A DNA stretch of 64,000 bases, taken from assembly GCA_051294375.1 (NCBI GenBank), contig CM119265.1, positions 9,370,772 to 9,434,771 on the forward strand, given 5' to 3'. Of this stretch, positions 12,660 through 62,767 are shown piece by piece. Each line of letters begins with the position of its first letter. Position 1 is the first letter of the stretch. The translations under genes and the position numbers were made by a program. Below the pieces are notes generated by a model. The model saw nothing but the letters and a program-made list of their open reading frames with translations. It was not told the origin of the DNA and ran no database searches. Source of the stretch: Paraspadella gotoi. Its lineage: Eukaryota > Animalia > Chaetognatha.

Positions 12660-15600
12660 ATGAAGACTCCCACGAAACCGGTGGCGTTGCCCGAACGACG
12701 CCGCCGGCTGAGTAGCCGTTCTGAGGCGCCTCAATCCGCCGTCGTCGTGACGCCGCGCCTGGAAGACGCCGAGACGCTTTTTCAGAAGTTGACCATCGCC
12801 GAGATTCAGGAGAAGCGGAAGGAGTTTTACGGAGGAATCGAGACGAAGCGGCAGGAGTTGAGGCTCTTGGTGGGGAAGAGGTGAGGATCTGGAAATTGCT
12901 CTTCTCGCCTTATGTTCAAATTTCAGGGCGAATAAGAAACTCATTTCAGAATTTGTTAAAATTGCATATGTAAAAATACATACCAGAAAAAACCCAAAAT
13001 TCTATCGCGTTTTAATTTTACTTTTAGATATGCTGGCCTCATCGAAGTCGCCGACGGCATCACGGAGATGAAATCCTGCGCCGAGAGCGTCACGTCTTCC
13101 GTTTCCGGTCTTCAACAGATTTGTCAACAATTAAAAAAGCAACAGAAGAGCGGCGCCGTTATTTCGCCAGCGGGCGACGCCTTGCCCGACAGGTAGAAAC
13201 GAGACTTGGAAATATCTGACGAAATCGCGTTCCTTTTCGTTTTACTTATCATTTATTTTTTTGACAGCCAGCGCGAGTTTTATTCAATCACGTCGCAGAT
13301 CAAGCTGCTCGTCACGGTGGCGCCCAAGATGTTCGCTCGTTTAGACGAGAAATCCTATTCGGACGCCGCCGTTCTCTTTTTGCTCGCCAAGCATTTGCAT
13401 CAGGGGCTGAGGCTGGACACTACTGCACACAACGCCACTGCGGTTTTGCCGTTTTTTCCCGGTGAGTATTGAGTACCGATTAGAATCCATTGTAATCTCG
13501 CTTCAATTGATGAATATGATTTCCTTAGTCATTTCCCGTCACTGGCCGGCCATCGCCCGATTTCGTCAGCTGATCGTGGCTTCGTCGCGGACTCAACTTT
13601 CGTCTCCGACGCTGACCGCCGATGCGGCCGTGGACGCCCTGTTGGCGCTTGTGGCTTTGGAGGGCGTTACAGTCCGTCAGGTCTTTGCCGACTTTCTCTT
13701 GGCCCGGACCGAAGCTCTGAATCAGGCAAGCCTAAGACAGCATCTTTCAATTCATGTCATATCCTAAATGTTGAATTGTTTCTTAGGTTTTAGGTTCATC
13801 TTCGGCGACTTTGAGCGTCAAGGATCAACTTCTCCAGGGAATTTCCATCCTCATTCTCTCGTTGAAGCTAGTCTTTGAAATATTCACTTCGCGCGAAAAT
13901 CAAGGTTCGAAATATTAAACTTCTCATTTTATGAATTTTGTTGCCAAGGAAGCGAGCTAAAAACTTAGTAACATTTCGGTCCGCCCCCCTCCATTCCCAA
14001 GAGCCTCGCGAAAACTCGCTCATTTCCCGCCTCGCCCTTCTGTCGTCGTCCACTTCCGCCGTCCTTCGCGCCGACGTCGTTTCCTGTTGCGGCTCCGTCG
14101 TCGCCTCCCATCTTCCCTCGTCGGCGCTGGAATTCAAACCGGCTCTTCGCGGCCAATCGACGCCGATGCCGGAGGAACAGATGCAGGACAGATGTAAAAA
14201 ATGGTTCGAGGTGAGGAAAAATACAATAGGCTATAATACTATGCCAAAGCCGGGTTGCCTGTGATCCCCATTGGGATGGGGCGTCTCACTGTTGGCTTTG
14301 GTGACTTTCAACCCTCAGTGACGCCACCTGTCACTGGCGCAGTTACCCAAGTCTAGGGCCTAGGACGGTCAACGCAGAGGGATTGGCTGAATGAAGCAGT
14401 ATGTAAGGCGGTGTGAATATACCGCCACAATACAATCAAATTAAAAAATGAACCCATTTTATTTTTCGCTGTACAAACGACAGTTCTCACTCTCAACCCT
14501 CCGATCGTCGCTCTCAACCCAATTGGCTTTTGTCTCTTCCGTTATGGGCCTTGCTCACATCCGGGATGTCGCCTTCGACGCTCTGACAGACTCGGATGTC
14601 GTCGGCGACTGGGACCGTGCATCCGAGGAGCTGCTTGGGCGTCGAGTCTGCGTCTGGCGGGAGGCGGTGCGACCACTGGTGGTGGTCAGGTTGGAGGAGT
14701 TGGTGCGAGATGGGATGAGGAATGTGGTTAAGGGGCTAGTGGATGGAATGAAAGTTGCCGGAGGTATGTGAGGATATTGTTTAAGAAATATTTATTATTC
14801 AGTTTTCTTAAACTTACTATTTTCCGTTTTAAAACGACCTACTAGCCACGCCATCTGACGACATTATCTCCTTCATGTGGAGCGAGTCATCAACCGACAT
14901 CCCACGCATCAATTTCGGCGACGGACAAAAGAAAGACGCTGGGGACGACGATGACGACGAATCTCAGCTAACGATGAAGACTAAAGGACGGACGTCCAAA
15001 GTGCAGCAGTTATGCCAGAAGGCGGACGCAGCGTTGAAGGAAGTGCTGCTCGACGCACAACACTTCGCCATCGTGAAGGCCAAAGGTCTTTTAATGAAGT
15101 TTTTGTTTTGTAATGTTTTGTTAAAATACTTTTCAACTCTGGTTTAGACGATGGAGCCACTTTCGACGTCGAAGAGGATGTCTCTCAAGCCTCTATCTTA
15201 ATTACTCGCTGCTGTCATGAAGTTTTTCAGGATCTCTTCTCCTTTCTGGACGAAGAATTGGCGCCTCCCGCACATTCCTCCTCTCGGCCTCATCCTCGTG
15301 CCGCTCGCCTCGTCTTCTTCGGCCGCATCTGCGAGGCTCTCTCCGATCAAGCGCCACACCTTTTTGCAGCTTTAGTGCCATCTGCAGCTTTGGTTGTCGA
15401 CTTACCCCAGCCATCCGTCGCCGATTCATCGCTTAAATCCTCCCTCCGTCGCTCTCTCCATTTCACCATGCGTTCTTCTTCGACGCTCTCTCGATCCAAT
15501 TCGATCGGGCCGGGCGCCCATCATCATAGCGACCAAACCCTCTTCGCCGACGTCAAGGAGGATCTGCTCAAGCGGTTCTGGCTGGCGTGGGAGGCGTGGC

Positions 15601-31877: not shown

Positions 31878-33984
31878 ACATTATACATTAAGCTTATTTA
31901 TTAAATGAATGGATAATTTTTATATTGGTTGTACCAATTTCATTTATATTAGATATTGTGGCGGTATATTCAAACCGCCTCACATCCACCATCCTTCAGC
32001 CAAATCCATTGGCTCAGAGGGGGAACACACCATCCCAGGCGTAGTGTTCCATCCACAGTCCTAACGACTTCCCTCTGTGTTGGAAAAGCGAGACCGTCCT
32101 GGGGTTACCGCGCCAGTGACTGAGGGGGTCACTGAGGGTCGGAGGCCCCCAAGGCCAACAGTGAGATGCCCCATCCCAATGGGCATCACAGGCAACCTGG
32201 CTGTTGCCACAAGTGGTGAGCCCTACTTTCGAACACGCAACCTTCTCAGGGTACGTTACGACAAATGCCTATACCCTGCCGACTTCGGGTACGCTACGAC
32301 AAACGCTATGCCCCTGGGGTACGCTACGACAAACGCCTATGCCCCTACAACTCGCGCTCTCTCTCCCACTATGGTAACAGTCTTGTCAGACACCTCTCAG
32401 GCTTGAGGAACCTGAGTGATGTCTTGGCCCGGGGATCCTGTGGCGGTATATTCACACCGCCTCACGTCCACCATCCTTCAGCCAAATCCATTGGCTCAGA
32501 GGGGAACACACCATCCCAGGCGTAGTGTTCCATCCACAGTAGAGCGTTGAAAATAACAAAATATAACAAATCAAGTGAGTTACATAGCTATTTTAGTGTA
32601 ATGTAGTTTGTAGAATTCGATGGTGATGACCATTTTTTTATATAATTTTATCTTTCTTGTCGAAATGACGGTTTTTAATGTATATAAAATTGTTATAAAA
32701 TAGCAAAACCATTATAAGTTATGATAAATCAAATTATTAAAATTTTATAAATTTATATGAGCTTTTGAAATATAAAAATAAAGACTTATAAAATATTTGG
32801 TAAGTTTATTTCTAAATTTTATGTTTTATAAAAAGTTAGTTAACTATATTTATTAATAATTATGAGTAAAAATTAGGTTAAAGTTAAAAAATAATAATTT
32901 CAAAATTTTTCATGGATTTGCATTCTTTGCAAAAGTTGATATAAGAAAATATAATTTTTATATCAAAATTATGTCATTAAGTTAGTCAAAATTCAGAAAA
33001 CTATAATTTTAAGCCAAAAATTGAAAAATTAAACAAAATAATAGTTTTTAATATTTTTAACCTACTTAATGAAAGAATTTTTTAAAATAAATTATACTTT
33101 CTTATATCAATTTTTTGTAAGGAATTCAAATCCGGTTTTAAAATTTAATTTTTTTTATTTTTTCACTTTAGCTTATTTTTTATTATTATTTGTTATTATA
33201 TAAATATAGTACTAATGCAATAAGTCTATATCAAAATAACTAATTAATTAAATATTATAATATTTTGAAAATGTAAACTTAGCACAAATATTATATATTA
33301 TCTTTATTTTGAGTCTTTATTTTTATATTATGTAAGTTAAATATGGCTTTTATAAAATCTTAATAATTGAGTTTCTTATACTCTACAATGTTTGCTCCAT
33401 TTTAATAGCACTTTATATGCTGCAAAAATCGCATTTCCGACAAAGAAGATGAGACTATACCAAAAAATGGTTATCATCATCGAATCTACAGACTTTATTA
33501 CACTAAAATAGCTATATACCTCACTTGATTTGTTTTATTTCGTTATTTTTCAACGCCTAACGACTTCCCTCTGCGTTGGCAAAGCGAGACCGTCCTGGGG
33601 TAACCGCGCCAGTGACTGGAGGCGTCACTGAGGGTCGGAGGCCCCCAAGGCCAACAGTGAGATGCCCCATCCCAATGGGCATCACAGGCAACCTGGCTGT
33701 TGCCATAATATCTTTATAGTGAATCCAATATCATTTTAAAAATTAATATTATTTCAAATTTGTTGTTTTTAATTTGTAACCCTGACCAGTGACTAATCAT
33801 CACTTGTTTTATAGACCAAATAAAATATTGTTCAAGTTTTAAACTCTTTTCTGAAATTTCCTTCCAGTTGATGCACCTGAAGCTTGCTCAGTTCATTGTT
33901 GACGACGGCCTCGAGAACAAACTCGTGATCGACGGCGAATGCTGTACTTGCGCTTTCAGACACTGAAACCGAAACCTCGGACAT
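29221..33984 (-). CDS. Ankyrin repeat protein, ANKRD45-like, multi-exon
   Basis: Exon 1 33984-33877 (MSEVS...LSKLQ), exon 2 from 31714 (GKSSLDTAAILGRTEIVEYLV), exon 3 GYTAMHHAAAWGKLDVIKLLV...GERPREIAIRY, then DTLQDPEKVQGRLSKEDK; last exon uncertain (stop at 29221 or 28556). Confidence 0.72.
31134..31335 (+). mobile_element. SINE-like element: tRNA-like head, partial twister motif, and tail from another repeat family
   Basis: A-box-like TAGCTTAGTG at 31144, B-box GGTTCAATCC at 31195, then GTGT GA TGG...T^AA ACAC GC CAATGAC..GTCATTG CAGA TCCA AA GC. Confidence 0.65.
32541..33555. mobile_element. AT-rich foldback/MITE-like element with long imperfect terminal inverted repeats
   Basis: GCGTTGAAAATAACAAAATATAACAAATCAAGTGAG...GACCATTTTTT is mirrored by AAAAAATGGTT...CTCACTTGATTTGTTTTATTTCGTTATTTTTCAACGC (about 100 bp or more). 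Confidence 0.8.
33575..33655 (+). ncRNA. Twister ribozyme motif, type P5 (L4 variant TCGG-AG-GC)
   Basis: Same architecture with intact TAA cleavage site; its partner in the 5' LTR (32079-32159) has TAA changed to TTA. Confidence 0.65.
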
Positions 33985-35485: not shown

Positions 35486-38400
35486 TCACAATTCGTCGTC
35501 TGGGTCGTGAGTCTTTTTCGCTTCGTCTCCGCTTGGCTCCCCAGTACTCGAGGGTTCCGTCGGAGGCTGTTCCGCCGGAGGAGGCTCGGATGTTGGCTCC
35601 CCCGATGAAGGCGAATCGGGGGAGGGCGCCTCTGGAGCCTCGGGAGACTGTCGATCGGCGGCAGGAGCCTCGGTCGCCTCGTCCTTTCCAGTTCCCTCTT
35701 CGGATACCGGCGATTCGGTCGGGGGAATGACTTTCTCTTCATTCTTCTTCGCCTCTTCTTCCTTCGCGGGTTCCTTTTTCGGTTTGGGCTTGTGGAACTT
35801 GGCTTTGTTGATGAGATATTTGATCTCTCGGTCCAGCGCCGCCAGCTTGGCCTCGACTTCAGACACGGTAAAAGCCGGCTTCTCGAAGTCTTTCTTCGTT
35901 TTCTGTTTCTCGACAACGACGTCCATCCAAGTTTGGGTCTCCACGTTAAGCTTGGCGAGAGTGTCGAGTTCGACCTCGGTGAAAATCGGATCGTCCGGAG
36001 TAGAATCGCTCAGGTTCTTGCTCATGACTAATATGAGATAAAGGTCAATTGTCGTTTAAGAAATTAAGAGAATGAGCCTTAGTTGTCGCTTCCCTTTATA
36101 CTCACCGTAAAAGTTGTGAGACGTGTTCAGGTGGCTGACAAGCGACTCAATGGCTTTGGGGCGGTTTTCTTTTTCGTTTAGTCGACCAAAGAACTCGGCG
36201 AATTCTTTCTTCAGCTCAGAAAGTTTATCCTTATAAGTTTTGGTTGGGACCTCGGGCCCTTGGTCGAACAACCAGTCGTCGGCCTTATTGAGGGAAGCCA
36301 GGAACGTCTCCCGCTCTTCTTCTAAAAATTTTAATTGAAAAATATTAATTTTTTTTTAAATATAAAAAAAAGCGGCGAAGTCGTTACCCGTCGCGCAAGA
36401 AGCCGTCTCATCCAAGTTCATCTTGTCCTTTGCGTCGTAAATAAAACCCTCGAGTGCGTTTTGAGCCGCCTCGCGCGCCACTCTCTCCGCGTCGGCGTCG
36501 TCCATCCTTTTGAGCGTCTCCCGAGCGAGCTTTAACTCATCAACCGTCATTTCCCTGGTGTCCTCGTAATGAAGCTCGGACGATATAGGTTCCTTTATCG
36601 TAACCAACTTCGGCACCACTTTTTTCGGCTTTTCCTCTTTCGCTTTATCTTTTTTCTCGTCTTTTTCTGTCTTGTTAGCGCCTTCCTTCACTTTTTCTTC
36701 TTTCTTTTGGTCTTTCGCTTCTTCTTTATTTTCTTCCTCTTTTTTGATTTCCGGATTTTCTTCTTTCGTTTTTTCCCCTTTTTGGTTTTCTTGACCACTT
36801 TTAGTTTGTGCTTGACCAGTTTCCTCCTTCGTCGTTTCCTTCTCATTTTCTTTCTTTTCATCATCTTTTCCCTGTTGCTCCTCTTCCTCTTTCTTTTCGC
36901 CAAACATGTTGGAGAAAGCGTCTTTGATCTGGTCAAGCGTTGAAGGTGACGCCTCCGACGCGGCTTCTTCCTCTTTAATCGTCTTCTCGAACAAAGACTC
37001 CACTTTCTCCAGCTGAAGAATTCCACTTTCGTCCATGCGAAAATGAGCTTTCACTCCTGGAAAAATATTTTTCTTTTGCCAATTTTTTAAACATTCATGA
37101 GTAAATATTTGCAAACAGTAAATAGATAAACAAAATTAAACTAATCCCTTTTATACCTTTCGCCTCGACGTCTTCACCACTGTGTTTATCTAAAGCCTTG
37201 TCAACGCCCGCAAGCGCGACCGTCTTTAACTCCCTCCCTCCGAACATGGCCTGATGTTCACCGTCGAGGAACGAGACGTCTCCATAATTTACGCGGACTC
37301 CGAAATCCTTTCGGTGTTTAGGAAAAGTGAGAACTTTGCGTTGCGGGTATGGGTTGTTTCGCGTGAAAAGCACGCGTTTAACTATCTTTCCCGGGGCTTC
37401 AGTGGAATCGGGCGCCGACTCGGACGGAGCGGCCAAGGCGCGTTCGAATTCAACCTAATTTAAATGCTTGAAAATTAAAGTCTTTTCCCGCCCTAGCCTT
37501 CGGTCCCACCCGACCCTTTACCTCGATAGGATAAACGTTAGAGTCTTTGACCAAAAATTTTTTAACTCTAAATCCTTTGCTTAAATGAGCGGCCTGATAA
37601 ACGGCACCCATGGCAGCGGACTCGTCCGTGTTTAAACTCATTCCTAGTTGATCGTGCCCCTTCGCAACCTCGAGGACGTTTTCGCGAACTTTAGGTATGC
37701 GCGTCCCGCCACCGAAGAGAAGAACTTGACTAACGGGGAAAAATAAAAGTTGAGCCGAACAAAATGACTTATTGCATAAGGTATGCGGGAAATAATTTGT
37801 TTTTTCTTTACTTTATCTCTCCCCACGTCATCTCCGATGATTTCATGGCCTCCTCCACCGGCTTCGCGACTCGGGCGAGCAAATCCTGGCACATGCCAAG
37901 AAATTCGTCTCTCGTGACTTTTTGGCGAAAATCTTTTTCCTCTAAAAGTCCCTCGATCTGAGCGTAAGCTTCCTTGTTTGCGCTGAGGATGAGCTTGACT
38001 CTTTCCGCTTCCTTGAGCAGTTTGCTCATTGCCTTTGAATTGGCCGTCACGTCTTGCTTGACTAGCTTCTTCTCGTTGAAAGCCTGGGAGAAGCGAAAAA
38101 GTTTACGGCACGTTTTAGACTAATGGAGTCAATTGCACGAAAAAGTGAGCGACCTTGGCCAAATGATTTCTGAGCCTGAGAGTAAATTCGAGTCCGCCCA
38201 GCGTTCGATCGAAGCCGACGGATTTAATCGTGACTTGAGGATTCGTTTCCGCGAATCCGTTTTCCTTCGTCTGCACCAATTGATAACTGGCGATGGAGGC
38301 GACGGTTGATCGCGCCCCCATGTCGAAGATGAGAAAGTTTTGCGCCGTCGCGTTGAATTCTTTACGTCTGGGAGTGAAAGCGGTTTTTGAAACGAGGAAC

Positions 38401-39595
38401 ATTCAGAACTCGAAGTTGAAAGAAAAAAAATCACTGCAAAGCAACCTGAACTTCACAAATCACTAAAAACATAACTCACCCCTGCCCAAGAAAACTGAAA
38501 AGAAAATAGAACTCGATCTAGATTAGGTCCTGATTGAGTACTATTATGGCAACGGGAGGATAGCCTGTGATACCCGGGGCGCGGGGTATCTCACTAACTG
38601 GCGTAGGGGCTGCGGACCCTCAGTGACCGCCTCCTGTCACTGGCATGTTTATACCGGCACCGTCACATTTAAGCCAGAACCGGGATACCCAGGGATTGAA
38701 CCCGGGACGCACGGATGGAATGAGATGATTTAGCCTGCTCAGCCATTGAGACGAGGCTGAGGACGGACAGCAGTGAGGCAGCTTTAAGTCTTGCTGCCAC
38801 ACTATTCGAATATTATCGACACGTCTCACCTGAAGACGCCATAATTGAGCGCGACGGCGGCGTCGTCGGTCATGAGTTGCAAGAGTTTAATTCCTGCCAA
38901 ATCGCAAGCGGCAGCGACGGCGCGCCTTTCGGCTTGGGAAAAGTAGGCGGGGACGGTGACGACGGCGCCGGCGATGGGCTGCTCCGCGAAGTTTGACGCC
39001 GTATCTTGAGCCTTGTTCAGAATCATCGCCAGAAGCTCCTCGGGACTTAACAAAAAAAGTTTGTCATGGTTCCCATGCATCTTTCAAAAAAAAAAGCCAC
39101 CATAATGAATACCTGAAATCTTCATTGTCGCTTTTCTTTAAAGTAACAGTGCCTCGCCCTTTCTTCTCGCCAAGGGCGATGTGAGGATAGGTCCTACGGT
39201 AATTGTCTACGAGGGGATGGTCCAACGTCTTGGCCAGGAGATCGTTGAGAAACCGAAACGCAGTCGGCGGTCTTTTCATCGAAGCTAAGAATAGAAAAGA
39301 ATAGGAATTTTGTGATTATTTGAATAATTTCGTGCAACAGATTGGTTTCTCTGAGCTCACCCGCCAAAGCGGCGTCCCCGAAGGATCGCTCCCCATCTTT
39401 GAACGCCACGATGTTGGCAGTTTTACGTCGGCCCTCTTTGTTGAGCGCGATTTCCATGGGAACGCCCGGCTTGACGATGGCGATTTTGAGGAACTCGCTT
39501 CCCAAGTCTACCGACATAACGGCCAAGGGCGACACTACCGTCGCCCAGTTACACAGCAAGAGTGATACCGTCGCCGCGAACCAACACCCCCGCAT
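35486..39595 (-). CDS. HYOU1: Hypoxia up-regulated protein 1 (GRP170, ER Hsp70-family nucleotide exchange factor), multi-exon
   Basis: Signal peptide then AVMSVDLGSEFLKIAIVKPGVPMEIALNKE, VTVPAYFSQAERRA, ALNYGVFR, DRTLGG, acidic/Lys-rich insert, C-terminal DDEL ER-retrieval signal. Confidence 0.95.
38545..38801 (-). mobile_element. Solo LTR of a divergent sister family
   Basis: Termini TGTGGC...GTTGCCATA, 257 bp, TSD CTAT on both sides, same series of hairpins with compensatory changes; in a HYOU1 intron. Confidence 0.88.
38598..38677 (-). ncRNA. Twister ribozyme motif, type P5 (divergent family; P2-P5, T1 and T2 fully paired, P1 minimal)
   Basis: CTGGC TTAA ATGT GA CGG TGCCGGTA T^AA ACAT GC CAGTGAC..GTCACTG AGGG TCCG CA GC CCCT AC GCCAG. 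Confidence 0.87.
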
Positions 39596-40441: not shown

Positions 40442-43400
40442 ATGGGGGCCAGATTCACTCTTGAAAGCCTCGATCTACGGAATTCTTCATCCCTCGTTCC
40501 CTCTTTCGACGAGGTCACCTTCCATAGACTTTCTCCGGCTCACCTGGTGCCGCCTTTGTTCTCAGGGACCGCGACCGCGACCGACTCTCGCGATGTTTCG
40601 CCGGACGTTGATTCCCCGATAACGTCAACGACAACGGCCTCTTCCAGCGCGCCTTCATTCTACGACCTCTGTCGACAGATTTTGGCGATCGTCCAACAGG
40701 TCGCCGCTCGTTTGCCGCTCGACGCGACGACTCCGTCGAGGGAGTCGACGACGATGTCCGGGCGGCCCGACGGCCAACCCGCGAGAGACGAGGAAGACGC
40801 CTTCGACGACGATATAGCTGACGCGGACGCCGTAGCGGGAAGCGACTCCGCAGCCGGAGCTGCAGAAAACGAGCAGCGTCGAGAATCGGACTCTGACTCG
40901 AGTCAGGTCGACCTCGCCAGAATCCTCCGCTTCCTCCTTCGCACCGGTCAAGTCAGATTCATGGCCGGTCAACCTTGGATCGATGGCACCAGCAGAGTAG
41001 GTGAGTACTTTCTTCTTTAATTAATATACTAATATTGTACAAGGTGACACACGAAAACCCGCCCCAAGGAAAAAATCGTCATTTGCAAAGCTGTTAATAT
41101 TTTTTTAATCTGAAATATTTTTTCTTTAGTAAAAACCAAAATCATTTATATATTCAAATTTCATATTGAGTGGTTATGATTTGACTTAGCAATGAGCGGG
41201 AAAAAATTGCTTTAAAGTCGTCTTTGATTTAAAAATTTGTTTTTTTATTTTTATTTTTTTCAATTTTTTTATTTAATTTCCTGAACATTTTTTAAAAAAC
41301 TTTTTTTAAGGCTCTTGGAAATTTGAAGAAAATTACATATTTAAGAATATTGTAAATGAAAATAAGTTTAACCACCTTTAGTTAAATAAAGTTTATCAAA
41401 AAATTTTCACAAGTTTGAAAATGATAATTTTTTTCTAGCGGCGGGTTGTCGTGTGTCACCTTGTAAAGACCTGATTAATACCAGTACCTCCACAACTTCA
41501 ACCTGATTGTCTCTGTCTTATGATATTAGTTAAAGTACAGGGACTTCAATCTGGAGCGTTACAAAAAGAATTGATTAAACTCGTAATTCTTTCACAGTAT
41601 ACTATTTTTATAACATTTTTTAGTTAATGAAAATTTTATTTTCAATAGATTTTAAAAGGAACATTTAATGATTATTAAGTATTATTAATGTTATAAAATA
41701 TTTTTGTTATTCTTTTGTGATACATGCATACGGTATATTCACACCGCCTCACATCCACCATCGTTTAACCAATCCCATTGGCTCAGAGGGGGAACGCACC
41801 ATCCCAGGCTTTGCGATCCATCCACAGTCCTAACGACTTCCCTCTGCGTTGGCAAAGCGAGACCGTCCTAGGGTAACCGCGCCAGTTACAGAAGGCGTCA
41901 CTGAGGGTCGGAAGCCAACAGTGAGATGCCCCATCCCAATGGGCATCACAGGCAACCCGGCTGTTGCCATAGTAACAGATTGAAGTCCCTGTATGTAATT
42001 TTACTTTCGCCGACCGGGGTTAGTGTGGTGAAGGGTTAATGGTGGTTTAGGGATAGTTTAGGGTTAAGAGGGGTTAGGATAATTAGGTAATATTTTTTTT
42101 AATAAATATTTTTAAATAGTTTTTTAAAAGACGCCAAAACCACGGTCGGCGAAAGTAAAATTTTGCCGAAACGGCTCCTTTCATGCGCAGAATTCCAAAT
42201 GATCACTAGCAAGAGAGACGATGAGGTGTAAGTCAATATCTTGTTTGTCAGGGAAGAAAAAGAGCTTCGATGAATTCGATTTATTTTACAGAAAAATGGC
42301 GGTCGAATAGAATTACTGAATTATTTTTCATGCCCCTTAAATTGATGCGAATCAGTTAGTCACGGAGACCTTATCAATCTGAAAAACTTTTTTGAAACTT
42401 ATTGATTGGCAGACATGAATTACGAAGAGGGCATCGGATACGGCGACGATGATGACGATTCTGATTACGTCGCGTCCGACGACGCCAATGATTCCGACTC
42501 GGACGACAATCGCGTCGTTCATCAGCCTGAGCCTGACCCCGCCCCGGATCTGCAACGTTTACAATCCTCGGATCTCATGCAGGTTTTCGCCTTGGATTTT
42601 CTCTCCTGAACTTTTAATCCTACCAATTAATTCAATTGTTTTCCCATTCTAGGAAATCCTTCAAAATTCTGGCCGAGGTCCCCTCTCCAACATCTCCACT
42701 TGCTGCATCCCGAAGCCGAGCCTCCGCTGTCTCGCCGGCAACTACCTCGTTTCCACGCGCACCATGTCGGCGGCCAATTCGGCCCAAGACATTCCCCGTC
42801 AGTCTTCTTCGACCGATCTTGCCTTCGATCCGAGCGACGCCGCCGAGGGTGATGCCTCCGGCACCCGGGCCGTCGGGTGCGTGCCCACGTGCTTCGGACG
42901 CTTCCGAAAGCGAGCGCAGGCCGCCAAGCGGGAAGAGGAAGAAGCGGAAAGATCGAAGAGAGAATTAGCCTTGAAAAGACAAGGCCTGCAAGGAAGGTAT
43001 GAATCACGTCTCAGGCTCGTTGGCGAAGGGAGTTTTCTCAAAACATGTTTATTGCAATTTCTTTTCACTCAGCGTGGGCTTTCGGAATCGTCCATTCCCT
43101 GTTGTGTTGCGGGATCGCGAGCTTGGTCTCCGTGGGGCTCGATGCAAGACGTCGCGCGGCATTTGGATGCTGGGCGATTGCAGTGCCATCTCCTCCATGT
43201 TTTTGCCCAACAAACCTTCGAGGGTTGCCGAGTTTGGGCGGTAAGTTTGATATTTATACGTTGTATTTTGACTTTCTTTTTGCTAATTAAAATAGTTTAG
43301 AGATGAAACGAAAAATTCGTTGGAATAGCACTTGCTGATGAAGACTCGTACCACTAAGAGACGAAACATGTACAATATTAAAAATAAATTGCTATTCCAA

Positions 43401-46105: not shown

Positions 46106-49100
46106 ATGTATCGTCCCTCGCCCCATGAAGTCGTTGGGTTCCCGCCACCTCCTTGCCGTCCGTCCAGCATTCCCGCGTCCCGCCTCGCCTTTCCGGCTCG
46201 CCCCGGGTTCCGCGCGGGGCGTAAAAAGGTCCCATACGTGGCCCCGCCCCGGGCAATGGGACGCGAGAGCGAAGGAGAGTGGGTAAACGTTCGCGGCGAC
46301 GCCGACATCGGCGCTGATGGCGGCGGCAGAGCGGAAGAAACGGCGGTGAAAGAGATGGAGCCGACTAAGGACGCCGCCGTGGAGTTTGTGAAGAGCATGG
46401 AAAAGTGCCTGAAGGTATTTTTCCTGCGGTTTGTATCGTAATTAAGTTTTTTTTTATCTCGCCAGACGGGCTTAAAAGTGTGATATCATCGGAAGCTAAA
46501 AATTTAGATATGGCTTCTCATCATCGAGATCTTTGAAATGGTCATGTTCCATATCAATACTCGGATTTGTTTGTTTTATTTACAAAACAATACTACAAAT
46601 TACATTTTGTTTCTCTCTTTTTCTCCGTCGCTGTTTCTTATTCGTCTAAAAACGAGGTCAGCTCTGCAGCGGCTGGAGTTCTCTCTCTCATTCATACACG
46701 CATTTGTTTGTTTTATTTACAATGAATGACTATCATCGCGTCAATGAATGACTATCATCGCGTCAATGAATGACTATCATCGCGTCAATGAATGACTATC
46801 ATCGCGTCAATGAATGACTATCATCGCGTCAATGAATGACTATCATCACGTCAATGAATGACTATCATCGCGTCAATGAATGACTATCATCGCATCAGTG
46901 AATGAACTATCATTGAATAAATAATTGGTTATCATCTTGTCAATAATCAATTATTATTACATTAATAATCTATTATTATTACATTAATAATCTATTATTA
47001 TTACATTAATAATCTATTATTATTACATTAATAATCTATTACTATTACATTAATAATCTATTACTATTACATTAATAATCTATTACTATTACATCAATCA
47101 TTCGTTTTTTTTTCCGGATTTTTTAATTTTTTTTCTTTGATAGTAGCGAGATCAATATATTTTTGAGATTTGTTTTTATTTTGATTTTGCTTCCACTTCA
47201 AAGGATTTCTACGTCTTCTTCGGCGAAAGCGATTCGGAAGAGTCGGACTTCTCGGGATTCGACGACGAAGAAGTTGATCGTTCAGAGAGAGACGCCGACG
47301 ACTCCTACGTCAAAACCCTCGACGACGTCACCGTCGAAATCGATAAGCAGCGACGCGGCGAACTTGATGAAGACGAACACTATGAAGAATCTCCATCCGA
47401 GCTGCCCAAAGGCGACCGCGTCCAAAAGAACGCTTCTCGGTCCCACGATCACATACCACGCACGCTCGGTCGTGACACTTCCGTTCGTTCCTCCAAACAA
47501 TCCAAGTTCTCGAAGCGACCTTCTCCAGCCCTCATATCGACAACCTCGACCAAGCGGCGTTGCTCCGATCGTCACGCTTGTCTCGACGAGCAGTCGGCAT
47601 CTTCCGACAGTCGTCGCTCGGATCGGCTCGCGGGGGCCACGCCCGTCGCAGATAGAGACGACGCGCCGACTTCAAGAAAGAAAAGGGTTTCCGGAGCAAA
47701 TACGATGCTGGACGCTAAAATGTCTCCAACCGCTCGGACTGATTTTCCGCCGACGACGCCAGTCGCTCCCTTCCGCGGCCGATTGAAGAGCAGAACGACT
47801 TCCGTTTCTAGTGACTCGGCGCCGGATTCCTCGGAGGCCACCCCCGCTCGCACCGGCGACTCCGCCGCGTCCACCGAAAGCCCGGCGCCGCTTTCTTCCC
47901 CGGGCACGCCGCTTATTGTTAGCGGAAAGCGGGAGAGAAAACCCTCGATGAAGATAAAGATGATCGCTGCCGACCACACCGGACGAGCTGCTGGAGAGAA
48001 GATGAAGAAGTTAGGAAAGATGAACGAGTGCCACGGCTCAGGTGGTCATAAAGCGATGACCAATGGGTTTAAGAAATTGTCAACCGAAGAATCAATTTTT
48101 AAGCCCGCTGGGAAAAGACCAAAGATGGAGCCTGTTGACGAGAATACGCTTTTAGGCGTGGCTGAATCTGCTGGACCTCTGCCGCAAACAGCTGAAGACC
48201 CTTCCGAAATGTCCGACGTTCTCGATTCAATCAATGACCTAAGTAGCAAATTCTCGGAAGTCGTCGTTGGCAGACTGAAGAGCGTTTTGGCCGCCAATGC
48301 TTACCCCAACGCGTCGGAACGAGCCGATTTAGCGGCGGAGTTGGGCTTGCAGCCTAAGCAGGTTCGAAAACGGAAATTTCTGAAATCTCGAGACAAGGAA
48401 GAAACGAGTTTGTCTTATAGTGTTGCAAATTACTTATTTCAGGTCAAAAATTGGTTCGAACGTCAACGCAAGAAACTAAAGAAAATATCCCCAGATTTGG
48501 TTCTGGCCAGTTCCCCCCAACCTCACAAGCCAAAAAGCGAGCGACGCCCCTCCATGTCTCCGCCCTTGAAAGCCTCGACGACCGACTCCAATGATTTTCC
48601 GGACGACGACGACGACGCGTTAGGCGAGTTGAAAATCGATCTCGACGCTCTGCCCGACGAAGAGGGCGTGGACGAAACTTATCAATCTCTCTTGAAACTC
48701 CCATCCCGCCCGCCTCCTTCGCCCGTCGGCCTCTCTGACAATCGAATACTTCCAAGTGCCTCCGCCTCGTCCCCGGCCGTCGTCAAGAAGAAAAGGGGCG
48801 AGTTGTTCCCGCGTCCCGCGTTGATAAAACTGTGGGAGATGCTTATTCGTCACAAGGATCATCCTTTCCCTTCGCTCGAAGAAAAACAGCGCGTGGCCAA
48901 AGAGGCGGGGCTTGCCCTCAATCAAGTCTCCAAGTGGGTATTCTTCGCGCGGCAGAGAAAATATCTCCAGATGCACGACAGGATCGAAGGCTTGGAGAAT
49001 TTTATAGAAAAGAAATATTTCAGGTAGGTTTTTGAAAACGCGAGAAAGTCTTCGACAGAACCATATATCAAGGCTCAAGTTAGTTCCTTTAACCCCGGAA

Positions 49101-52100
49101 CTTCTTTTCTCTCTTTTCTATCTTCTGTCTTTCTATCTTTCTCTTTTATATATTTTTTTTCATATTTTCGTTTCAAAAGTCAATTTTTGCCAATTTTCAA
49201 AATTCCATCGCGATTTTCCATCTATGCTTCTTCTTTTTCCTCTTCCTCCTTTTTGCTTCTTTCTCATTGGAAATGAGCTACGTAGCCCAATGATTCTTTT
49301 TCTTTTTTTTCCTTGGATTTACGAAAATACGTGATTTAGATATTTCGTAGTACTTTTCTTTAGAAAGATGAAATTTATATAATGAAATGGTTACAAACAA
49401 TATAAAAATTTTCCATTCATTTAATAAATAAGCTATCTTGCCCCTGACTTTGGACAGGCTTTGGTGGTTTAAGGCCTACATCACTCTTACAAGATAAAAA
49501 CAATCAAGACTTTCTCACAGTCTTGTTTATTCACTCCCAGAGAAACTGGCTTTCCGATCAATGAAGTGGTATTTTTACCGACAGACAGACTAACAGATCA
49601 TAAAGTGAGAGTCACGACTGTAGCCGTGTCTAAAAATATGTGTACTTAATACTTATCTAGAACCTGTCAAATATGTACTGACGGGAGTAAAAACGATTTT
49701 CATATGGTAGAAGAACCAGTATCAACCTCTGGTAAAAACTGGTTATTCATAGTAGGTTTCAAATTTTGAAAATATTTTTTTACAGTATGATTTTTTTCGT
49801 TTGTAACAGCCCAAGACAGCATATTCTATGCAACTGTAAACTCTATAGTAGAGAGTTAAATGATAGTCGGTTTTGAAGGTTGTGGCAACAACAACACGTG
49901 GCCTTACCAGATCAAGCGATCACTATACTTTTAAGATTTTTTAAAGCTGTACTGATTCACTGTATTCATTTGTAAAGTGATAGTACGCTTGAGAAACTCT
50001 GTATAATATAGCATATATGCAATGAGTCTTCTTTATTTGGTGACTGATTATTAAGAGGTTGTCGAGTTTGAAACTTTGATTCAATTTTTCAATTTGTGAT
50101 TATTAAAAAGTAGTTAAAATATAACAAAAAATAATTTATAAAATTAAATAAAATTTTTTTGAGGACGAGAAGTTAACATCCCTCCTAACTGCAAGGCTTA
50201 ACTGCTAGAAACCGGGACCTTTGGGTTGGGAGGCGAAGGCCTTACCTCCTGCACCAATGGCCACTGATGAACAGTTGGTGGATCTTAGTCCACCATAATA
50301 TATATATATATATATAAAATTGAAACATTCTTTGAAACATTATACCACTTCATTGATAGGGAAGCCAGGTACTCTGGGATTGAATAAACATGACTGTGAG
50401 AGTGTCGTGATTGAAAGCTTGCAGGGATGTGCTATGTCATTATTTTGTAAGAGTGATGGAGGCCTTAAACCACCAAAGCCTGTCCAAAGTCAGGGGCAAG
50501 ATAGCTTGTTTATTAAATTAATGGATAATTTTTATATTGGTTGTACCAATTTTATATTCATAAATGCCCGACGACGAGCTACAAAATGATCCACAATTTA
50601 GATCTCTTGGGTGAATGGATTCTGAGATATCTTCACTGGAAATGTTACAAACAAGAAAAATCATACTGTATTATCCATAAATTTTCAATTAATAAATCAT
50701 CTTCCAGGAAAGCCTCGACCACTCCTAATTTACGCGTTCGCAAATCTAAATCCGTCCCTTTACCCGCGATGGTGGAGAAGAGACTCCGGCCAGAATCGAC
50801 GAGCGTGCTGAAAACTTGGCTCCTCTACCGCAAAGACAGTCCGATCCCTAGTCACGACGAACTGTCTACCATCGCTTCCAAAGCCGAAGTTCCTCTTCAC
50901 GAACTAGAAACCTGGTTCAAGATGCGCTACGAGGACGGCTGGACGGGCGACTTCGACGTCGTCAGGCTCAGCTCCTTCCAAGACCTCGACCGAAAAGAAG
51001 AGCCCGCGAAGAGGAGTGTCGTAAAAAGCAAAGTTTGTTATTGAGTAATTTGGTTGATTGCTCTCCGTTAATTAATTCCAATGCTCTTTCGTCTGTGTTA
51101 AGGAGCAACGGGTCAAAAAATTAAGATTGAGAAGAGCGCAGGGCGACGTTCTCCGCTCGTGGCTCTACCGGAACCGCGCCCATCCCGAACTCACTGAAGA
51201 CGACTTTCGCGAGTTAGAGGCGGCCACGTCGTTGAACGCCGACGAGATCCAGAGATGGGTCGACTTCGCCGTCAAAAAAGGAGTTCCTCGTCGACTCACC
51301 ACCGTCTGGAAGAAAAAAGGAGAGGCTTTCACGGACAGGGTCAGTGATAAAGTTTTTATTTTCGAATCCTTGATTAAATAATAAATATGTTACGATGTTA
51401 TTCATTTTTCTATCCATAGTTTTTACCAGCCAAATCCGTGAATATCCTCAAAAGATATTTGCTTCGAAATCCGCATGTCATTCAACCAAATTGGGAAGAC
51501 AAGCAAAAGCTGTGGAAGAAGACGGGTTTGACAATGAAACAGGCGAGTAATAGCAAACTCTGCTATTAGGAATGAACGCTCCATTTTTTACGACGAACAT
51601 TTTTTTTAAATGATTTTTCAGATTCAGATATGGTTCGCAAAAGCGAATCAGCGGGACTTGCGGTCGCGCATCTTCGCCCAACGCGCGGTGTCGGGGATCA
51701 AGAGGCTCGAATGGGAGGACGAAGAGGATCCTCCGACGGAGGACGAGAGTCGGTCGGAGATCGTCGTTGAGTCGGGAGAGTCCAAGTCGAAGGTGACTGA
51801 GGTTAGTTAGTAGGTTAAGAGGGAGTCGTTTTGTTAGTGTTTTAAACATAGAATTATTAGAACCATTCCCATTGAACATTGTAATCTTATATTCGATTTC
51901 GTTCGCTCTTTCACAGATCTCCCGTCGCCCCGTCTCCATCCGATCTCCGCGCTTCTGTTTCTCAGACGACGACGTTGCTTCCATCTCCTTAACTTCGACC
52001 TCTTCATCGTCTTCTTCTCTCATTCCTGCTTCGGCCTCTCGCCACCTCCTCCTCTCCCTTTACCGTCGTCGAACTCACCCTTTCGTCGACGCGAGGGAGA

Positions 52101-54766
52101 AGCTCCGCCTCTCCCGCGTCACCAACCTTCCTCCACGCCGAATTCTCCGATGGTTCCAGGAGGCGCGCGCCAAAAAGTGGGCCCGGAAGTTGAGATTGAC
52201 GCTGAAAGATGGAGTCGTCGTCGCCGCGGAAGAAGACGGTGGCGTCGGTGACAAGACGGCGACGAAAAAGAAACGCGACGATGTGGACGAAGCGATCGAA
52301 GACGCCATTTCTCTCATTCCGACGTTGCGTACGGCCGTCGCTAAACTAACGCCCAAATCTCCCGACGTAAGCAGTGACGCGGGTGGCGTGACCGCCGACG
52401 ATGTGCTTGAAGAAGACCTCGACCTCAGCTCGTCTTCCTGTTCGTCGAATCGCTCCAACGATGCCTTAGATAAGAACGACCTAGCGATGTTGCAAAACGG
52501 ATCTCTGACTGGAGCGTTGAGGACCGCGATGCGGACCAACGGAGATCACGGCGGCGTCGGCGGCGAAGGTGGCGAAGCGGAAGATGAAGAGTTTGTGGAG
52601 GAGGCTGACGATGACAACGACGACGCCTTCGAAACCGATTCGCCTTCCCTTTATCCGCCGCCAGAATATTTTCACTCCGTCGTCCCTCAGACGGACGGCA
52701 TCACAGAGGATCAGCTTGTCCGTCTCTCGATGATGCTCTTTAACCACAGGGGAGAGGCCTTCCCTGATCCATCCGCGAAGGAGTTGGAGGAGGCGTCGGC
52801 GGAGACAGGATTGAAAGAGGAGTTCGTGAGAGACTGGTTCGAGAAGTGTGTCTCTGACGGCATTCACGCCAACATGGAGAGGTGAGGAAGGAAGATAGAA
52901 ATTCAATAGAGATGAGTCTTGAAATGTTGAGAAAATAATGAAACTAATTCTATTGTTTTCCTTTGTTTTGTTTTTCAGCGTCAGTAATAAAAATTTGCGA
53001 CTTCCACCTCGCGATTTGGACCGCAACTCAAACCGAACGGCGCCCTTGCCAGTGGTGCCACATCGTCGTGCTCGTTACCCCGTCCATGTCACCAACGCCC
53101 TTAAAACATTTCTGCTCGAGCGACGAGTGCTTTTCCCCACGGCGGCAGACCTCCTCGCCCTCACGTCGACCACGGGACTGTCGACGAAGCGATTGCGAAA
53201 CTGGTTTGGACAGGCGCGAAGCAAGCATCTCCTACACCAGCTCATCGCCGAGAAATGGAAACCAGAAGACGACGATGGAGGCGAGGGGATCGCCGGAGGG
53301 AAAGATCTCAGTTTTGTCGACGACGGTGGCGACAGCATCGGCGGTAACGGCGATGATGCTCCCTTTTCTCCCAGCTCCGTCGACGACAAAACTACGAGCC
53401 GGTCAAAACGGGTCATCAAGCCGGCAAAGCGCTTCATCGAAGAGCACGAAGCTATGCTGTCCAGCGCCAAAGCGAAGCGGCGCGATTCGACGCCTTCCTT
53501 TGTGACGGAGGAGACGGGCACCAACAACAACGACAAAGAGACGAGGTTGACGCTGGAAGAGATTCAGGAGAGGGTGCTTAATTTGCCCAATTCGTTGCAA
53601 GGTAGGTTAATACATCGTAGTATGGCAACAGCCGGGTTGCCTGTGATGCCCATTGGGATGGGGCATCTCACTGTTGGCTCTGGGGGCTTCCGACCCTCAG
53701 TGACGCCTCCAGTCACTGGCGCGGTTACCCTAGGACGGTCTCGCTTTGCCAACGCAGAGGGAAGTCGTTAGGACTGTGGATGGAACACTACGCCTGGGAT
53801 GGTGTGTTCCCCCTCTGAGCCAATGGATTTGGCTGACGGATGGTGGACGTGAGGCGGTGTGAATATACCACCACAGGATCCCCGGGCCAAGACATCACTC
53901 AGGTTCCTCAAGCCTGAGAGGTGTCTGACAAAACTGTTACCATAGTGGGAGAGAGAGAGAGAGCGCGAGTTGTGGGGGCATAGGCGTTTGTCGTAGCGTA
54001 CCCCAGGGGCATAGGCGTTTGTCGTAGCGTACCCAAAGTCGGCAGGGCATAGGCGTTTGTCGTAGCGTACCCTGAGAAGGTTGCGTGTTCGATAGTAGGG
54101 CTCACCACTTATGGCAACAGCCGGGTTGCCTGTGATGCCCATTGGGATGGGGCATCTCACTGTTGGCTTTGGGGGCTTCCGACCCTCAGTGACGCCTCCA
54201 GTCACTGGCGCGGTTACCCTAGGACGGTCTCGCTTTGCCAACGCAGAGGGAAGTCGTTAGGACTGTGGATGGAACACTACGCCTGGGATGGTGTGTTCCC
54301 CTCTGAGCCAATGGATTTGGCTGACGGATGGTGGACGTGAGGCGGTGTGAATATACCGCCACAGTAGCCAAATTTAATGCTGTTAACGTGGTGTATGTTA
54401 AGGTTGTTAAAACTTACCTTTTTTAAAATTTTCTTTCGTTATTTTTCTTTCTTTCATCTTTGTTTCGTCCTTATTTTTTAATCGGATCAGCTTATCAGCA
54501 CATCCCGACTCTATAATTCACTTTGTCGGTCCGCCCCCTCAATCTTGTCGGGCATTCACTTATATCATGTCAGAACATCGAATTATGATAAATTATCTGT
54601 AATTCCATTCAGAAAAACAAATTTTTGATTTTCACAATGAATTTATTTAATTATGAGCAGACATCTTTCGAACATTGTTCTGTTCTTCATCAGTGCAATA
54701 TTTCAGTTTGAATTACAAAATTTTGGTAAGTTAAAAGTGAGAGAGGAAGAGGGAGACAGAGAGTGA

Positions 54767-54803
<37 letters not shown>

Positions 54804-57800
54804 TCAGAGAGATAAAAGAAACTGTAATATTGCACTGATAAAGAACAGAACAATATTCAAAACATGTCTGCTAATAACTAAATAAATTCGTTTTTCTAAA
54901 TTTTTACCAACGAAACGAAACGAAAACCAACAAAATGTAATAAGGTCTGAAGAATTCGACGATGATAACCATTATTCATTGTAAGAACACATTCCTAATT
55001 TATTCATTTTCTTTCCACACTCCCCATTCTCAATTTCCTCAGTGATGTTTTCCTTCCGCCAACACGATATCCTCTGCGAATGGCTCCACGCCCACCAACG
55101 TCATCCTGTCCCTTCCGAGTCTCAGCGACGCCAACTCTCTCGTTCGACTTCGCTTCCTCCGTCTCAGGTTGCTAATTGGCTAACCCACGCTCGGCGACGG
55201 ATCCTGGCGGACGACGGCGCCGATGGAGACGCGCCACCCCAAGCATCGTCCCCCGCGAGGGACACAGCGCTTCCGGGCGCCAACCTTTTGGTCACACAGC
55301 CTTCCAAACAAAATTGCGACGTCTGCGAATCCGAGTGGAAACTTTTGGGTGAGTTTTCTCTTTTCCAAAAGTCATCCTAAGTAACAATCAGTTTTGTCAA
55401 TAAATGATATTAAAGTGATACTATCTTTGTTGGAGAACAATACCTATTGAGAAAATTCCTATCAAATGTCCTGAATCTTTAATTCTCTCATAAATCTGTG
55501 TTCTCAATTCAACAATGGAAAGCCTGAGTTTATTGTTCTTTCGGCTTTCCCGCTTTTCGGTCTTTTTCTGAATTCTTTTGAGAGAGAGCAGAGAGAGAGA
55601 GAGAGAGAGAGAAATCGCACAATCCAATGATAAATTGAGGGTTATTTGTTAAGGGAGAACCAAAAATAAAGCGAATTCTGTTATACTTTGTTTGGTATGT
55701 TAAAAATAAACCTAAAATTTCGCCAAGTTCGAAAAATCCTTAGTTTCAAAGCCAAAGACCGTCATTACGAGAACATAAATAAATTTTAATTCATGTCGTA
55801 GGTAGTTGTGGAGCACTCGAACAAAAAAATTATTTGAATGATCGAACAAGGATATTTAAATGTAAGATAGTATAATTAATTAGTATAAAAAATATTTTGT
55901 TTATATTATTTCGGGAACAGAAATTTTAAAAATATATATATATTTTTTAAAAATTTTAATAAAGATTGGAATTTTTTATAAAAAGTCGATTTAAATATAC
56001 ATATATATTTTTTTGTAATAAAAACATATATGTTAAATGTTTGTCATTTTTTGCAATCTAAACATTAAAATATCATATAATATATTTTATAAAAGTTTTT
56101 AAATCAAAATCTGTTTTTAAAAATAAAAAAAAATTTAAATGATTTAAAATTTGTTCATTACATATCCATAAGCAGCAAAAAAAAATGTTTAATCGCTCAA
56201 TCTTTTCATCACTCCACCCTAGTATGTAGCTTAATAGTTTAATACATTGAAAATGGTGACATAATTATAAAAAATTGCGTCAGCGGGGAATCGAACCCCG
56301 ATCAACTGCTTGGAAGGCAACTATGCTAACCATTACACCACTGACGCCCCTTCTTGAGAAGATAGTTAAAGTCACGTTTTGATCCATTCTCTTCTGCTCT
56401 CCACCTCGAAACGCACGGCTGCTGCTTTTGTACGGCGCCTCGCAGCCGTTCTCGTTCAGCCGCAGCAGCCGTCGCCCCTGCGGTCGCAGCGGATATTCAC
56501 AACAAAAGTCGACACTGCCTTATTTGTAGCTGCTCTTTCTCTTTCCTCTTTGCGAAGTGACGGTAGAGCGAACCACGCGTCGGTGGTGGCGGCGGTGCGC
56601 TGAATGTCGAAGCTTCGAATTCGAAATCGAGCCGTTTTGTGTCAGAGGCTGTGAATGAATGAGGGCGTTTGGATTTCGAAGAACCCAACGAACGAAAGAA
56701 AGAGAACGAGAGAGAGAGAGAGAGAGAAAAAAAAACCACGCATATTATAATCTCTTCGGAATGAGTTATCATGCTGGCGGGCGAGCTGCACATTATCTCC
56801 TGTCACTCCTTCGATACGTAAGACTCTCTGAATTTTTCCTCCCAGCGATATTTTTTCGGTGTCTGTTTTTTTCCGGAATAGTCGCGATTGGAAAACTAAG
56901 AAAAGAACGGAAAAAAAATCGAAAAATAATGTTTATAATATATTTTTAAGTAAACATGATTTTTTTTACAATCGATCTAAAAATAAGAATTTATTTATTA
57001 AGTAGGTTATCTTGCTTTCCTAAATGTAATCCATGCTACAAATATTATAATGTCGTGTGGTGCTGTACTAATATAATACAATACACGTTACATATTAGTG
57101 ACTAACTTTATAATATATTTTTCCTTTGAACCTCTTCAAAACTGAATTAATTTAAAAAAATATTAAATTTAAATCCAAAATCCCATCCGCGCGTTCCGCC
57201 CGCTCCACGTGATTCGGTCTTTGTCTCGTTTCGATCATTGACGACTTAGAATCTCTTTTCCCCCACGCGCGTCCATCTTTATTTTTCTTCTTCGCTTCCA
57301 AGGTTACGCGTCCGACGAGGGCGCCGGCGCGACGATATGCGAGTCTTGCAAGATCTTCTACCAGACGGCGATGAGCCGAGGTCTCGTCTTCGAATGCGTC
57401 GACGGCGGACTCGGCTGCGGTCGCGTGGGAAAGGCGCTGCTCGACTGCGAGGCCTGTCGCCTCCTCTCCTGTCAGGACGTTTTGAGGTAAGAATGAACGG
57501 TAGGGGTTGGGAAGAAGTAGCTAACTTTAACTTGTTACAACTATGCCAACTATGGTCATCTCATTAAATAGAATCAAGCCCCGCGTCCGTCCACCAAAGA
57601 CAACCGCCACTGGCCGCTCCTTCGCCAACGGCGGTGGCGACGCCCCTAGTCCCCGGATCGGAAGCAACGACGTCGAGGCTTCCCCGCAACGCAAGGGACC
57701 CAGAATTAAATACGTGTGTCGCAAGGCGGCGCTCGCTCAAAGTCAGTGCCATTTCGTTTTACAGTTGTGGCAGTTCCGACATTTGTCACTCCGATCCATC

Positions 57801-62505: not shown

Positions 62506-62767
62506 TGTGACAGTACATTCACACCGCCTCACGACCATAATCGTTCAGCCAATCCCATTGGCTCAGAGGGGGAACACACCATCCCAGGCGTAGTGTTCTC
62601 TCCGCAGTTCTAACGACTTCCTTCTGCGTTGGCAAAGCGAGACCGTCCTAGGGTAACTGCGTCGGCGACTGGAGACGTCATTGAGGGTCGGAACTTGGAA
62701 GCCCCCAAAGCCACCATTGATATGACCCATCCCAATGGGCATCACAGGCAACCCTACTGTTACCATA
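62506..62767 (+). mobile_element. Diverged solo LTR of the TRIM family
   Basis: TGTGACAG...TACCATA, homologous along its length; imperfect TSD GCAT/CCAT. Confidence 0.85.

Follow-up and report, generated by a model that had tools for sequence, protein, structure and literature searches.

A 64,000-nucleotide stretch of the chaetognath Paraspadella gotoi genome (GenBank assembly GCA_051294375.1, contig CM119265.1, positions 9,370,772 to 9,434,771; hereafter the window) contains a short element on its minus strand, element A, in which each of two long terminal repeats (LTRs) has a predicted twister ribozyme fold. That this element is an LTR retrotransposon is practically certain, and it is a young and abundant terminal-repeat retrotransposon in miniature (TRIM) of the Helenus type. 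What stands established about it is its DNA anatomy, its pattern of conservation and its presence in RNA. On this basis we propose, with a probability of about 0.45, that the element follows a retrozyme-like cycle in which transcription by RNA polymerase III (Pol III) would be followed by paired twister cuts, formation of a 489-nt circle and copying by a Gypsy-type helper.

[quoted passage not shown] The original prediction had described a non-autonomous animal LTR element with one twister fold per LTR, a description that holds, and it was incomplete in leaving this known class of chassis unnamed. Papers of 2020, 2021 and 2026 divide retrozymes between plant LTR elements that carry type III hammerheads and animal non-LTR tandem repeats that carry type I hammerheads, with twisters tied only to non-LTR RTE elements. 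Element A breaks this split on both counts as it is an animal LTR element and carries a twister. We found no description of a twister-bearing LTR element in the open-licence literature, and the supplementary lists of Roth et al. 2014 as well as Repbase could hold unremarked ones. If the proposed cycle is true, then the twister would have a second job, that of making paired cuts in an LTR element, ribozyme classes would be interchangeable in retrozyme design, and Helenus elements and retrozymes would be joined.

Element A measures 743 nt in total, has two LTRs within less than 1 kb and encodes no mobilisation protein, which are the defining features of a TRIM. The 5′ LTR (54110..54363, minus strand, 254 nt) starts with TGTGGC and ends with GCCATA, the interior (54109-53876, minus strand) is 234 nt long, and the 3′ LTR (53621..53875, minus strand) is 255 nt long. 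The duplication GTAG lies beside the 5′ LTR at 54364..54367 and beside the 3′ LTR at 53617..53620. This layout had been predicted and was confirmed when all of its parts were re-measured, as were a primer-binding site (PBS)-like TGGTGAGCCC that begins at 54107, two bases past the 5′ LTR, and a cut-to-cut unit of 489 nt between the predicted cleavage-site uridines at 54216 and 53727. Only two substitutions and one indel separate the two LTRs, indicating a recent insertion. The interior ends in a short polypurine tract (PPT)-like stretch (GGGGATCC, 53876..53883, minus strand) that is common to a sister family described below. An origin of the repeats as Penelope pseudo-LTRs was considered and rejected because of the TG start, the 4-bp TSDs, the PBS and the existence of solo LTRs with TSDs. 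A 162-aa open frame over one unit was also dismissed as chance since it has no Pfam match and since the corresponding unit in a second copy is ~481 nt long, which is not a multiple of three. Within the interior there are three 29-nt repeats (53975-54003, 54006-54034 and 54044-54072; together 53975..54072, minus strand), each a predicted hairpin. Each of these hairpins includes 6 nt complementary to the D arm of tRNA-Trp, which may be chance or may provide extra primer contacts. The element lies antisense, 19 nt past a GTAGGT donor-like site (~53602), probably within an intron of a TALE-type homeobox frame.

Six loci of this kind occupy 2,434 of the 64,000 bases of the window, comprising two full elements (A and B) and four solo LTRs (C, D, E and F). 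Copy B (31957..33707, plus strand) has the TSD ATAT and a 227-nt interior; its 5′ LTR reads UUA at the cut site, and a 1015-nt insertion interrupts its 3′ LTR but leaves the twister core there intact. Copy F (38545..38801, minus strand; TSD CTAT) is a solo LTR of a diverged sister family that sits within an intron of a HYOU1-like gene, with a predicted cut at 38651/38650 and canonical A and B boxes. The remaining solo LTRs are more damaged at the ribozyme, with copy C (41726..41971, plus strand) having an eroded 5′ end, a partly deleted L4/P4 and an unreadable TSD, copy D (62506..62767, plus strand) having a 7-nt insertion in L4 and the TSD GCAT/CCAT, and copy E (14240..14429, minus strand; TSD ATAC) having an internal deletion that disrupts the ribozyme. 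The 4-bp TSDs are thus perfect at four of the five readable loci (A, B, E and F) and match at three of four positions in D, while the end of C is eroded. Across the five sites (A, B, D, E and F) the third base is always A and the second mostly T, which hints at a target preference. In the DNA run X1, 10,401 contigs map to element A and 1,713 to the F region, their summed depth being approximately three orders above that of single-copy flanks (a measure of contig depth, not of copy number). Families A and F have common termini, and an F-like contig from run X11, which comes from another study, shares both the primer site and the end of the interior with A. The insertion in copy B (32541-33555) is AT-rich (19% GC) with terminal inverted repeats and is probably a non-autonomous DNA transposon; an end similar to it adjoins an F-type LTR in run X13.

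The predicted twister fold of the 5′ LTR spans 54162..54242 (minus strand) in the P5 order. Its outer parts are P5 (54242-54237/54167-54162), P2′ (54233-54230), GA (54229-54228) and T1′ (54227-54225), and its inner parts are the P1 8-mer (54224-54217), the predicted cut U54216^A54215, P2 (54213-54210), GC (54209-54208), P3 (54207-54187) and P4/L4 (54185-54172), all on the minus strand. The corresponding fold of the 3′ LTR spans 53673..53753 (minus strand) with a predicted cut at U53727^A53726. The twister parts named in the original prediction were all found in both LTRs of element A and in the P5 order, a type of twister ribozyme that is reportedly among the classes of Roth et al. 2014. The folds share with type-P5 twisters every conserved letter, both pseudoknots and the order of parts; they differ in scoring below the Rfam threshold, in having a self-complementary 8-mer as P1 and, in family A, in a C-A mismatch within P2. 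The mismatch and a very short P1 had been announced as deviations, and both are real. Permuted twisters (PMC6765202, PMC6154101) and the twister structure (PMC6154101) have been described.

To score the motif we used a descriptor in which the Rfam twister-P1 consensus is rearranged into P5 order and which was written after the sequence had been seen. In the 128 kb represented by both strands of the window this descriptor has four matches, all inside LTRs (both LTRs of A, the 3′ LTR of B, and F). In sets of 20,000 dinucleotide-shuffled LTRs there were 0 matches for A and, under a relaxed loop rule, 10 for F, and shuffled windows gave 0-0.07 matches per window (15 shuffles). As judged from these sequence counts, a chance match to the twister motif is excluded. 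When the core stretches of A and F are each scanned alone, twister-P1 is also the top Rfam family, with scores below threshold, while the Rfam scans of the element list no hammerhead family. A scan of viral contigs with a twister-core pattern returned 10 loci, which are pattern matches only.

Conservation further argues that the fold matters to the element. The conserved letters U^AA, GC, L4 U..A.GC and GA are complete in both LTRs of A and in the 3′ LTR of B, with the L4 A absent in F, and UAA, GA and both GC are identical between families A and F. [quoted passage not shown] Changes on both sides of a pair are present at 6 of 30 pairs (two in P2, one in the T1 pseudoknot, two in the P1 8-mer and one in a downstream hairpin), as compared with 0-1 in slid controls; P5 was left out of this pair count as the aligner had placed it out of register. 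Additional evidence comes from run X11, where an A-like contig of 94% identity has 23 substitutions, of which none falls in the 142 covered nt of the ribozyme and the 3′ part of the LTR and all fall in the remaining 340 nt (Fisher p 5.5e-4). According to the difference table, the F-like contig of the same run reads the canonical A in L4, retains P2 through a wobble pair and has U-A in place of a downstream C-G pair. We consider it very probable that the twister fold is under selection and, as far as sequence can indicate, quite likely that the family cleaves its own RNA.

The short P1 deserves separate consideration. The 8-mer that closes P1 is fully self-complementary in A, in the 3′ LTR of B, in F and in an X11 variant, with letters that differ each time; for example, the F-like contig of X11 has a different perfect palindrome at this place. 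As a hairpin P1 is predicted to form only 2 bp at 0 kcal/mol, while as a duplex of two copies it is predicted to form 8 bp at -9.4 to -11 kcal/mol. Two or more P1 pairs are the norm in twisters, and cleavage is poor where they are lacking (PMC8501958); axolotl hammerheads whose weak helix is palindromic need to be dimers for efficient cutting (PMC7229834). As P1 is weak as a hairpin and yet the 8-mer is self-complementary, we infer that the two LTR copies present in each precursor could together form a double twister. A natural twister that acts only as a dimer would, if true, be new ribozyme biochemistry, and our literature search found none.

Upstream of the ribozyme each intact LTR has motifs that resemble an internal Pol III promoter. 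In the 5′ LTR of element A, a putative A box (54299..54310, minus strand) begins at LTR position 54, a place that is the same in all intact copies and in family F, and it is followed by a B-box-like motif (54267..54275, minus strand) that has one mismatch to the consensus in A and is canonical in F; the counterparts in the 3′ LTR are an A box at 53822-53811 and a B-box-like motif at 53786-53778. The A box is present in copies A, B, C, D and F, and in the intact LTRs it lies at LTR position 54-57 with the B box 35-44 nt downstream. An A and a B box at tRNA spacing occur in only 8-11 of 20,000 shuffles, and the LTR of copy F is colinear in alignment with a tRNA-Gly gene of the window. The X11 variants have boxes that are untouched or improved, with a textbook A box in the F-like contig. 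Neither AATAAA nor a T-run is present in the family A LTR. We did not use ARAGORN calls as proof, since none fell in the LTRs at -ps90 or -ps80, and -ps70 gave six noisy models of which one lay over the F boxes and others over the ribozyme. Judging from the boxes and their placement, use of a Pol III promoter appears likely; Pol III transcription is also unproven for the published Helenus elements (PMC10886601).

Priming would involve tRNA-Trp. The primer-binding site (54098..54107, minus strand) has 10 nt complementary to the 3′ end of tRNA-Trp including the CCA, and a second part (54075..54092, minus strand), which is common to the sister family, is complementary over 18 nt to that tRNA's variable loop and T arm. 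The best primer match, L027, is the tRNA-Trp of a metagenome bin and not the tRNA of the host. A T-arm pattern retrieved 24 loci in genome contigs, of which five are tRNA-Trp (these were aligned), six are other tRNAs (four Arg, one Thr and one Gly) and 13 have no tRNA call; a second T-arm pattern scan retrieved one locus with no tRNA, and an Rfam scan of the primer region listed no tRNA match. A pattern that combines the LTR end with the PBS has no match in viral contigs; its two matches in metagenome contigs fall within coding sequence of bacteria and were rejected as chance. A Trp primer together with 4-bp TSDs is a mark of the CsRn1 lineage of Gypsy (PMC3630058), and by this analogy a CsRn1-like Gypsy element may be the helper, which is a lead rather than a finding.

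Transcripts that contain the element are present in run X9. We take this run to be RNA because one contig splices four introns of the HYOU1-like gene and the intron bins are empty. It has 639 contigs over 29 of the 30 bins of element A, and F is covered as well. These contigs carry no strand, ends or level, and neither expression nor the parts of the element can be ranked by contig depth. Since in addition intronic copies would be visible in any case, transcription from the element's own promoter, cleavage and circles are not demonstrated by this run. One X11 contig, in which the interior is followed by an LTR and then again by the PBS, has the look of a circle; it was rejected as evidence of one, since a collapsed assembly graph of two like LTRs would yield it at low host coverage.

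In the cycle that we favor, Pol III would start near LTR position 47 (~54317) and read through both LTRs, as neither AATAAA nor a T-run would stop it there. Strand exchange between the two 8-mers of one precursor would then produce a double twister that cuts, after which the single-copy product would be stable. Paired cuts at 54216/54215 and 53727/53726 followed by ligation would generate a 489-nt circle, on which tRNA-Trp would prime at its two-part site so that reverse transcriptase could round the circle and rebuild both LTRs with no need of an R repeat. Insertion would be carried out by a Gypsy integrase, possibly CsRn1-like given the Trp primer and the 4-bp TSD. Provided that cleavage takes place, we somewhat favor the circle as the copied intermediate.

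A number of observations weigh against this cycle. The Rfam covariance search, which had been proposed as a check on the twister, yielded no twister family at gathering score, and the P5 and P3 models were unlisted even at E<=10. Against a cut-off of 67.2, the twister-P1 model scored 15.2 bits for A, with E 5.7 when 1 kb was scanned and E 0.6 when only the core was, and 18.4 bits for F, with E 0.09. The C-A mismatch of family A adjoins the predicted cut site, and in family F the L4 adenine is replaced by C in ~99% of the contig depth in the host. Structure prediction that excludes pseudoknots favors a competing fold in which P1, P2 and P4 pairs have a probability of <=0.02. Only four of the eight LTR copies in the window have a full twister core, with the 5′ LTR of B as well as C, D and E broken, and all six two-sided changes derive from the single contrast of A with F and are not six independent events. 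For the 489-nt unit, 58% pairing is predicted, less than the >70% self-pairing reported for retrozyme RNAs (PMC4918200), and its stability (z -1.74) is matched by 4 of 100 dinucleotide shuffles. The interior of element A also contains a private T4 run (53930..53933, minus strand) that could act as an early Pol III stop in this copy, while nearly all contigs carry another letter at 53932. Additionally, the PPT of family A is weak (it is more purine-rich in the F-like contig), the 64-kb window contains no Gypsy helper, and the X9 contigs could stem from intronic copies in host pre-mRNA.

A strong rival to this cycle, even if we consider it on the whole unlikely, is that the twister is active as a former of 3′ ends. 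A Pol III transcript from about LTR position 47 would then be cut only in the 3′ LTR, leaving a terminal repeat of ~100 nt and an ordinary linear LTR route, with circles as rare by-products. Most published animal Helenus LTRs, in the data available, have a T-run soon after the B box, and both here and in two wasp LTRs (judged by eye) there is a ribozyme instead and no T-run. Such a role would fit a unit RNA that is not unusually self-paired, and a weak P1 would permit partial cleavage (PMC8501958). However, both LTR cores have the same sequence with neither site visibly favored, the same layout produces abundant circles in plant retrozymes (PMC4918200), and tandem twisters yield circles in animal cells (cited in PMC7229834).

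It is considerably less probable that the twister is a module acquired from elsewhere, for instance from a Penelope-like or RTE element, which has lost its cutting activity and is retained by an ordinary Helenus TRIM as a structural or packaging signal. The sub-threshold Rfam scores, the C-A mismatch in A, the A-to-C change fixed in L4 of F and the competing fold all fit such a module, as does the fact that most Helenus families dispense with a ribozyme. Against this, UAA, GA and the L4 U persist across both families and the X11 variants, with compensatory change in the adjoining stems, and since a structural signal would not need unpaired catalytic letters, their conservation counts against loss of cutting. 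Still more improbable is a plant-style retrozyme transcribed by RNA polymerase II (Pol II), either from a TATA-like TATATT near LTR position 9 or by read-through from host genes, with the A and B boxes as relics. This would account for the B-box mismatch in family A and for intronic copies seen in a run that contains mRNA, but in family F the TATA-like word is missing and both the A and the B box are canonical at the corresponding position, in the X11 variants neither box is altered except for the better, and there is no poly(A) signal.

Comparison with known systems places the element between several of them. With Helenus it shares a TRIM size below 1 kb, A and B boxes in the LTR, a PBS and PPT, a 4-bp TSD, a primer site for a tRNA 3′ end, solo LTRs and a presumed Gypsy helper; it differs in the placement of its boxes within the 5′ half of the LTR, with a twister in place of a T-run after them, in LTRs that end in TA and not CA, and in its two-part primer site. 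The text of PMC10886601 does not contain the word twister, has ribozyme once in its reference list and ascribes none to any Helenus element, and in the available parts of its Data S1 (parts 1 and 5-9 of 11, in which line breaks can hide matches) no twister loop motif was seen in an LTR. With plant LTR retrozymes the element shares a non-coding nature, one self-cleaving ribozyme per LTR (here predicted), a 4-bp TSD and a cut-to-cut unit able to circularise, the plant elements having a PBS and PPT in common with Ty3-gypsy (Cervera, Urbina and de la Pena 2016, PMC4918200). Those have type III hammerheads (also PMC6765202), tRNA-Met, LTRs of 300-400 nt and proven circles (PMC4918200), whereas the element described here is from an animal and has a P5-order twister, a Trp primer site and Pol III boxes. 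The element has the build of an LTR retrozyme and yet is not one as defined, because it has a twister instead of a hammerhead and no proven circle.

Twisters on retroelements have been described from RTE non-LTR elements (PMC8501958, PMC13725137), and twisters also occur in viroid-like circles (10.1101/2022.07.19.500677). Perere-3, an RTE element of Schistosoma mansoni, resembles element A in having weak-P1 twister T-variants on an animal retroelement (Liu et al. 2021, PMC8501958), but its single P1-order ribozyme trims the 5′ end, and LTRs, a PBS and paired cuts are absent from it. Published accounts treat animal retrozymes as non-LTR (PMC7761336, 10.64898/2026.07.22.740005, PMC7936874). Like element A they are small with a ribozyme per unit, some being dimer-dependent via a palindromic weak helix; unlike it they have type I hammerheads in Penelope-linked tandem arrays with no LTR, PBS or PPT (Cervera and de la Pena 2020, PMC7229834; Li et al. 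2026, 10.64898/2026.07.22.740005). Insect type III hammerheads have been announced as in preparation (PMC7761336, PMC7936874), and thus related unpublished work may exist.

The closest Helenus members are Helenus-2_SyJa and Helenus-2_SyUm from Synergus wasps, which share the tRNA-Trp primer and the TGTGG start. In the LTRs of both (Data S1 of PMC10886601) we observed by eye a complete-looking type III hammerhead past the tRNA boxes, at a place matching that of the twister, with the core CUGAUGA/GAAAC, three helices and a 12-bp loop-loop pseudoknot; it goes unremarked in the available text of that paper. From their sequences these two elements look like unrecognised animal LTR retrozymes. A wider proposal would be that animal LTR retrozymes constitute a Trp-primed, Pol III-transcribed Helenus lineage with swapped ribozymes (a hammerhead in Synergus and a twister here), that cutting by the double twister requires both LTRs within one transcript, and that the stable non-coding circle is the true transposition intermediate. 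In this full form the proposal is speculative, and we regard it as improbable.

The rest of the window is typical of an animal host, as it encodes myosin XVIII-like, TTC7-like, TALE homeobox and CXXC proteins. The HYOU1-like Hsp70 gene that contains copy F occupies 36356-39560 on the minus strand and has short introns, four of which are spliced in X9; the nearest named relatives of one exon are molluscs at 60-64% identity, and others reach 73-76%, which points to an invertebrate. A tRNA-Gly(TCC) gene lies at 56276-56347 (minus strand), and ten N at 9765-9774 mark an assembly gap. A cluster of TALE-type homeobox frames extends over 47147-53771. Finally, a likely miniature inverted-repeat transposable element is present at 54636-54892, with 74-nt inverted arms that are 89% complementary and a GA-rich core.

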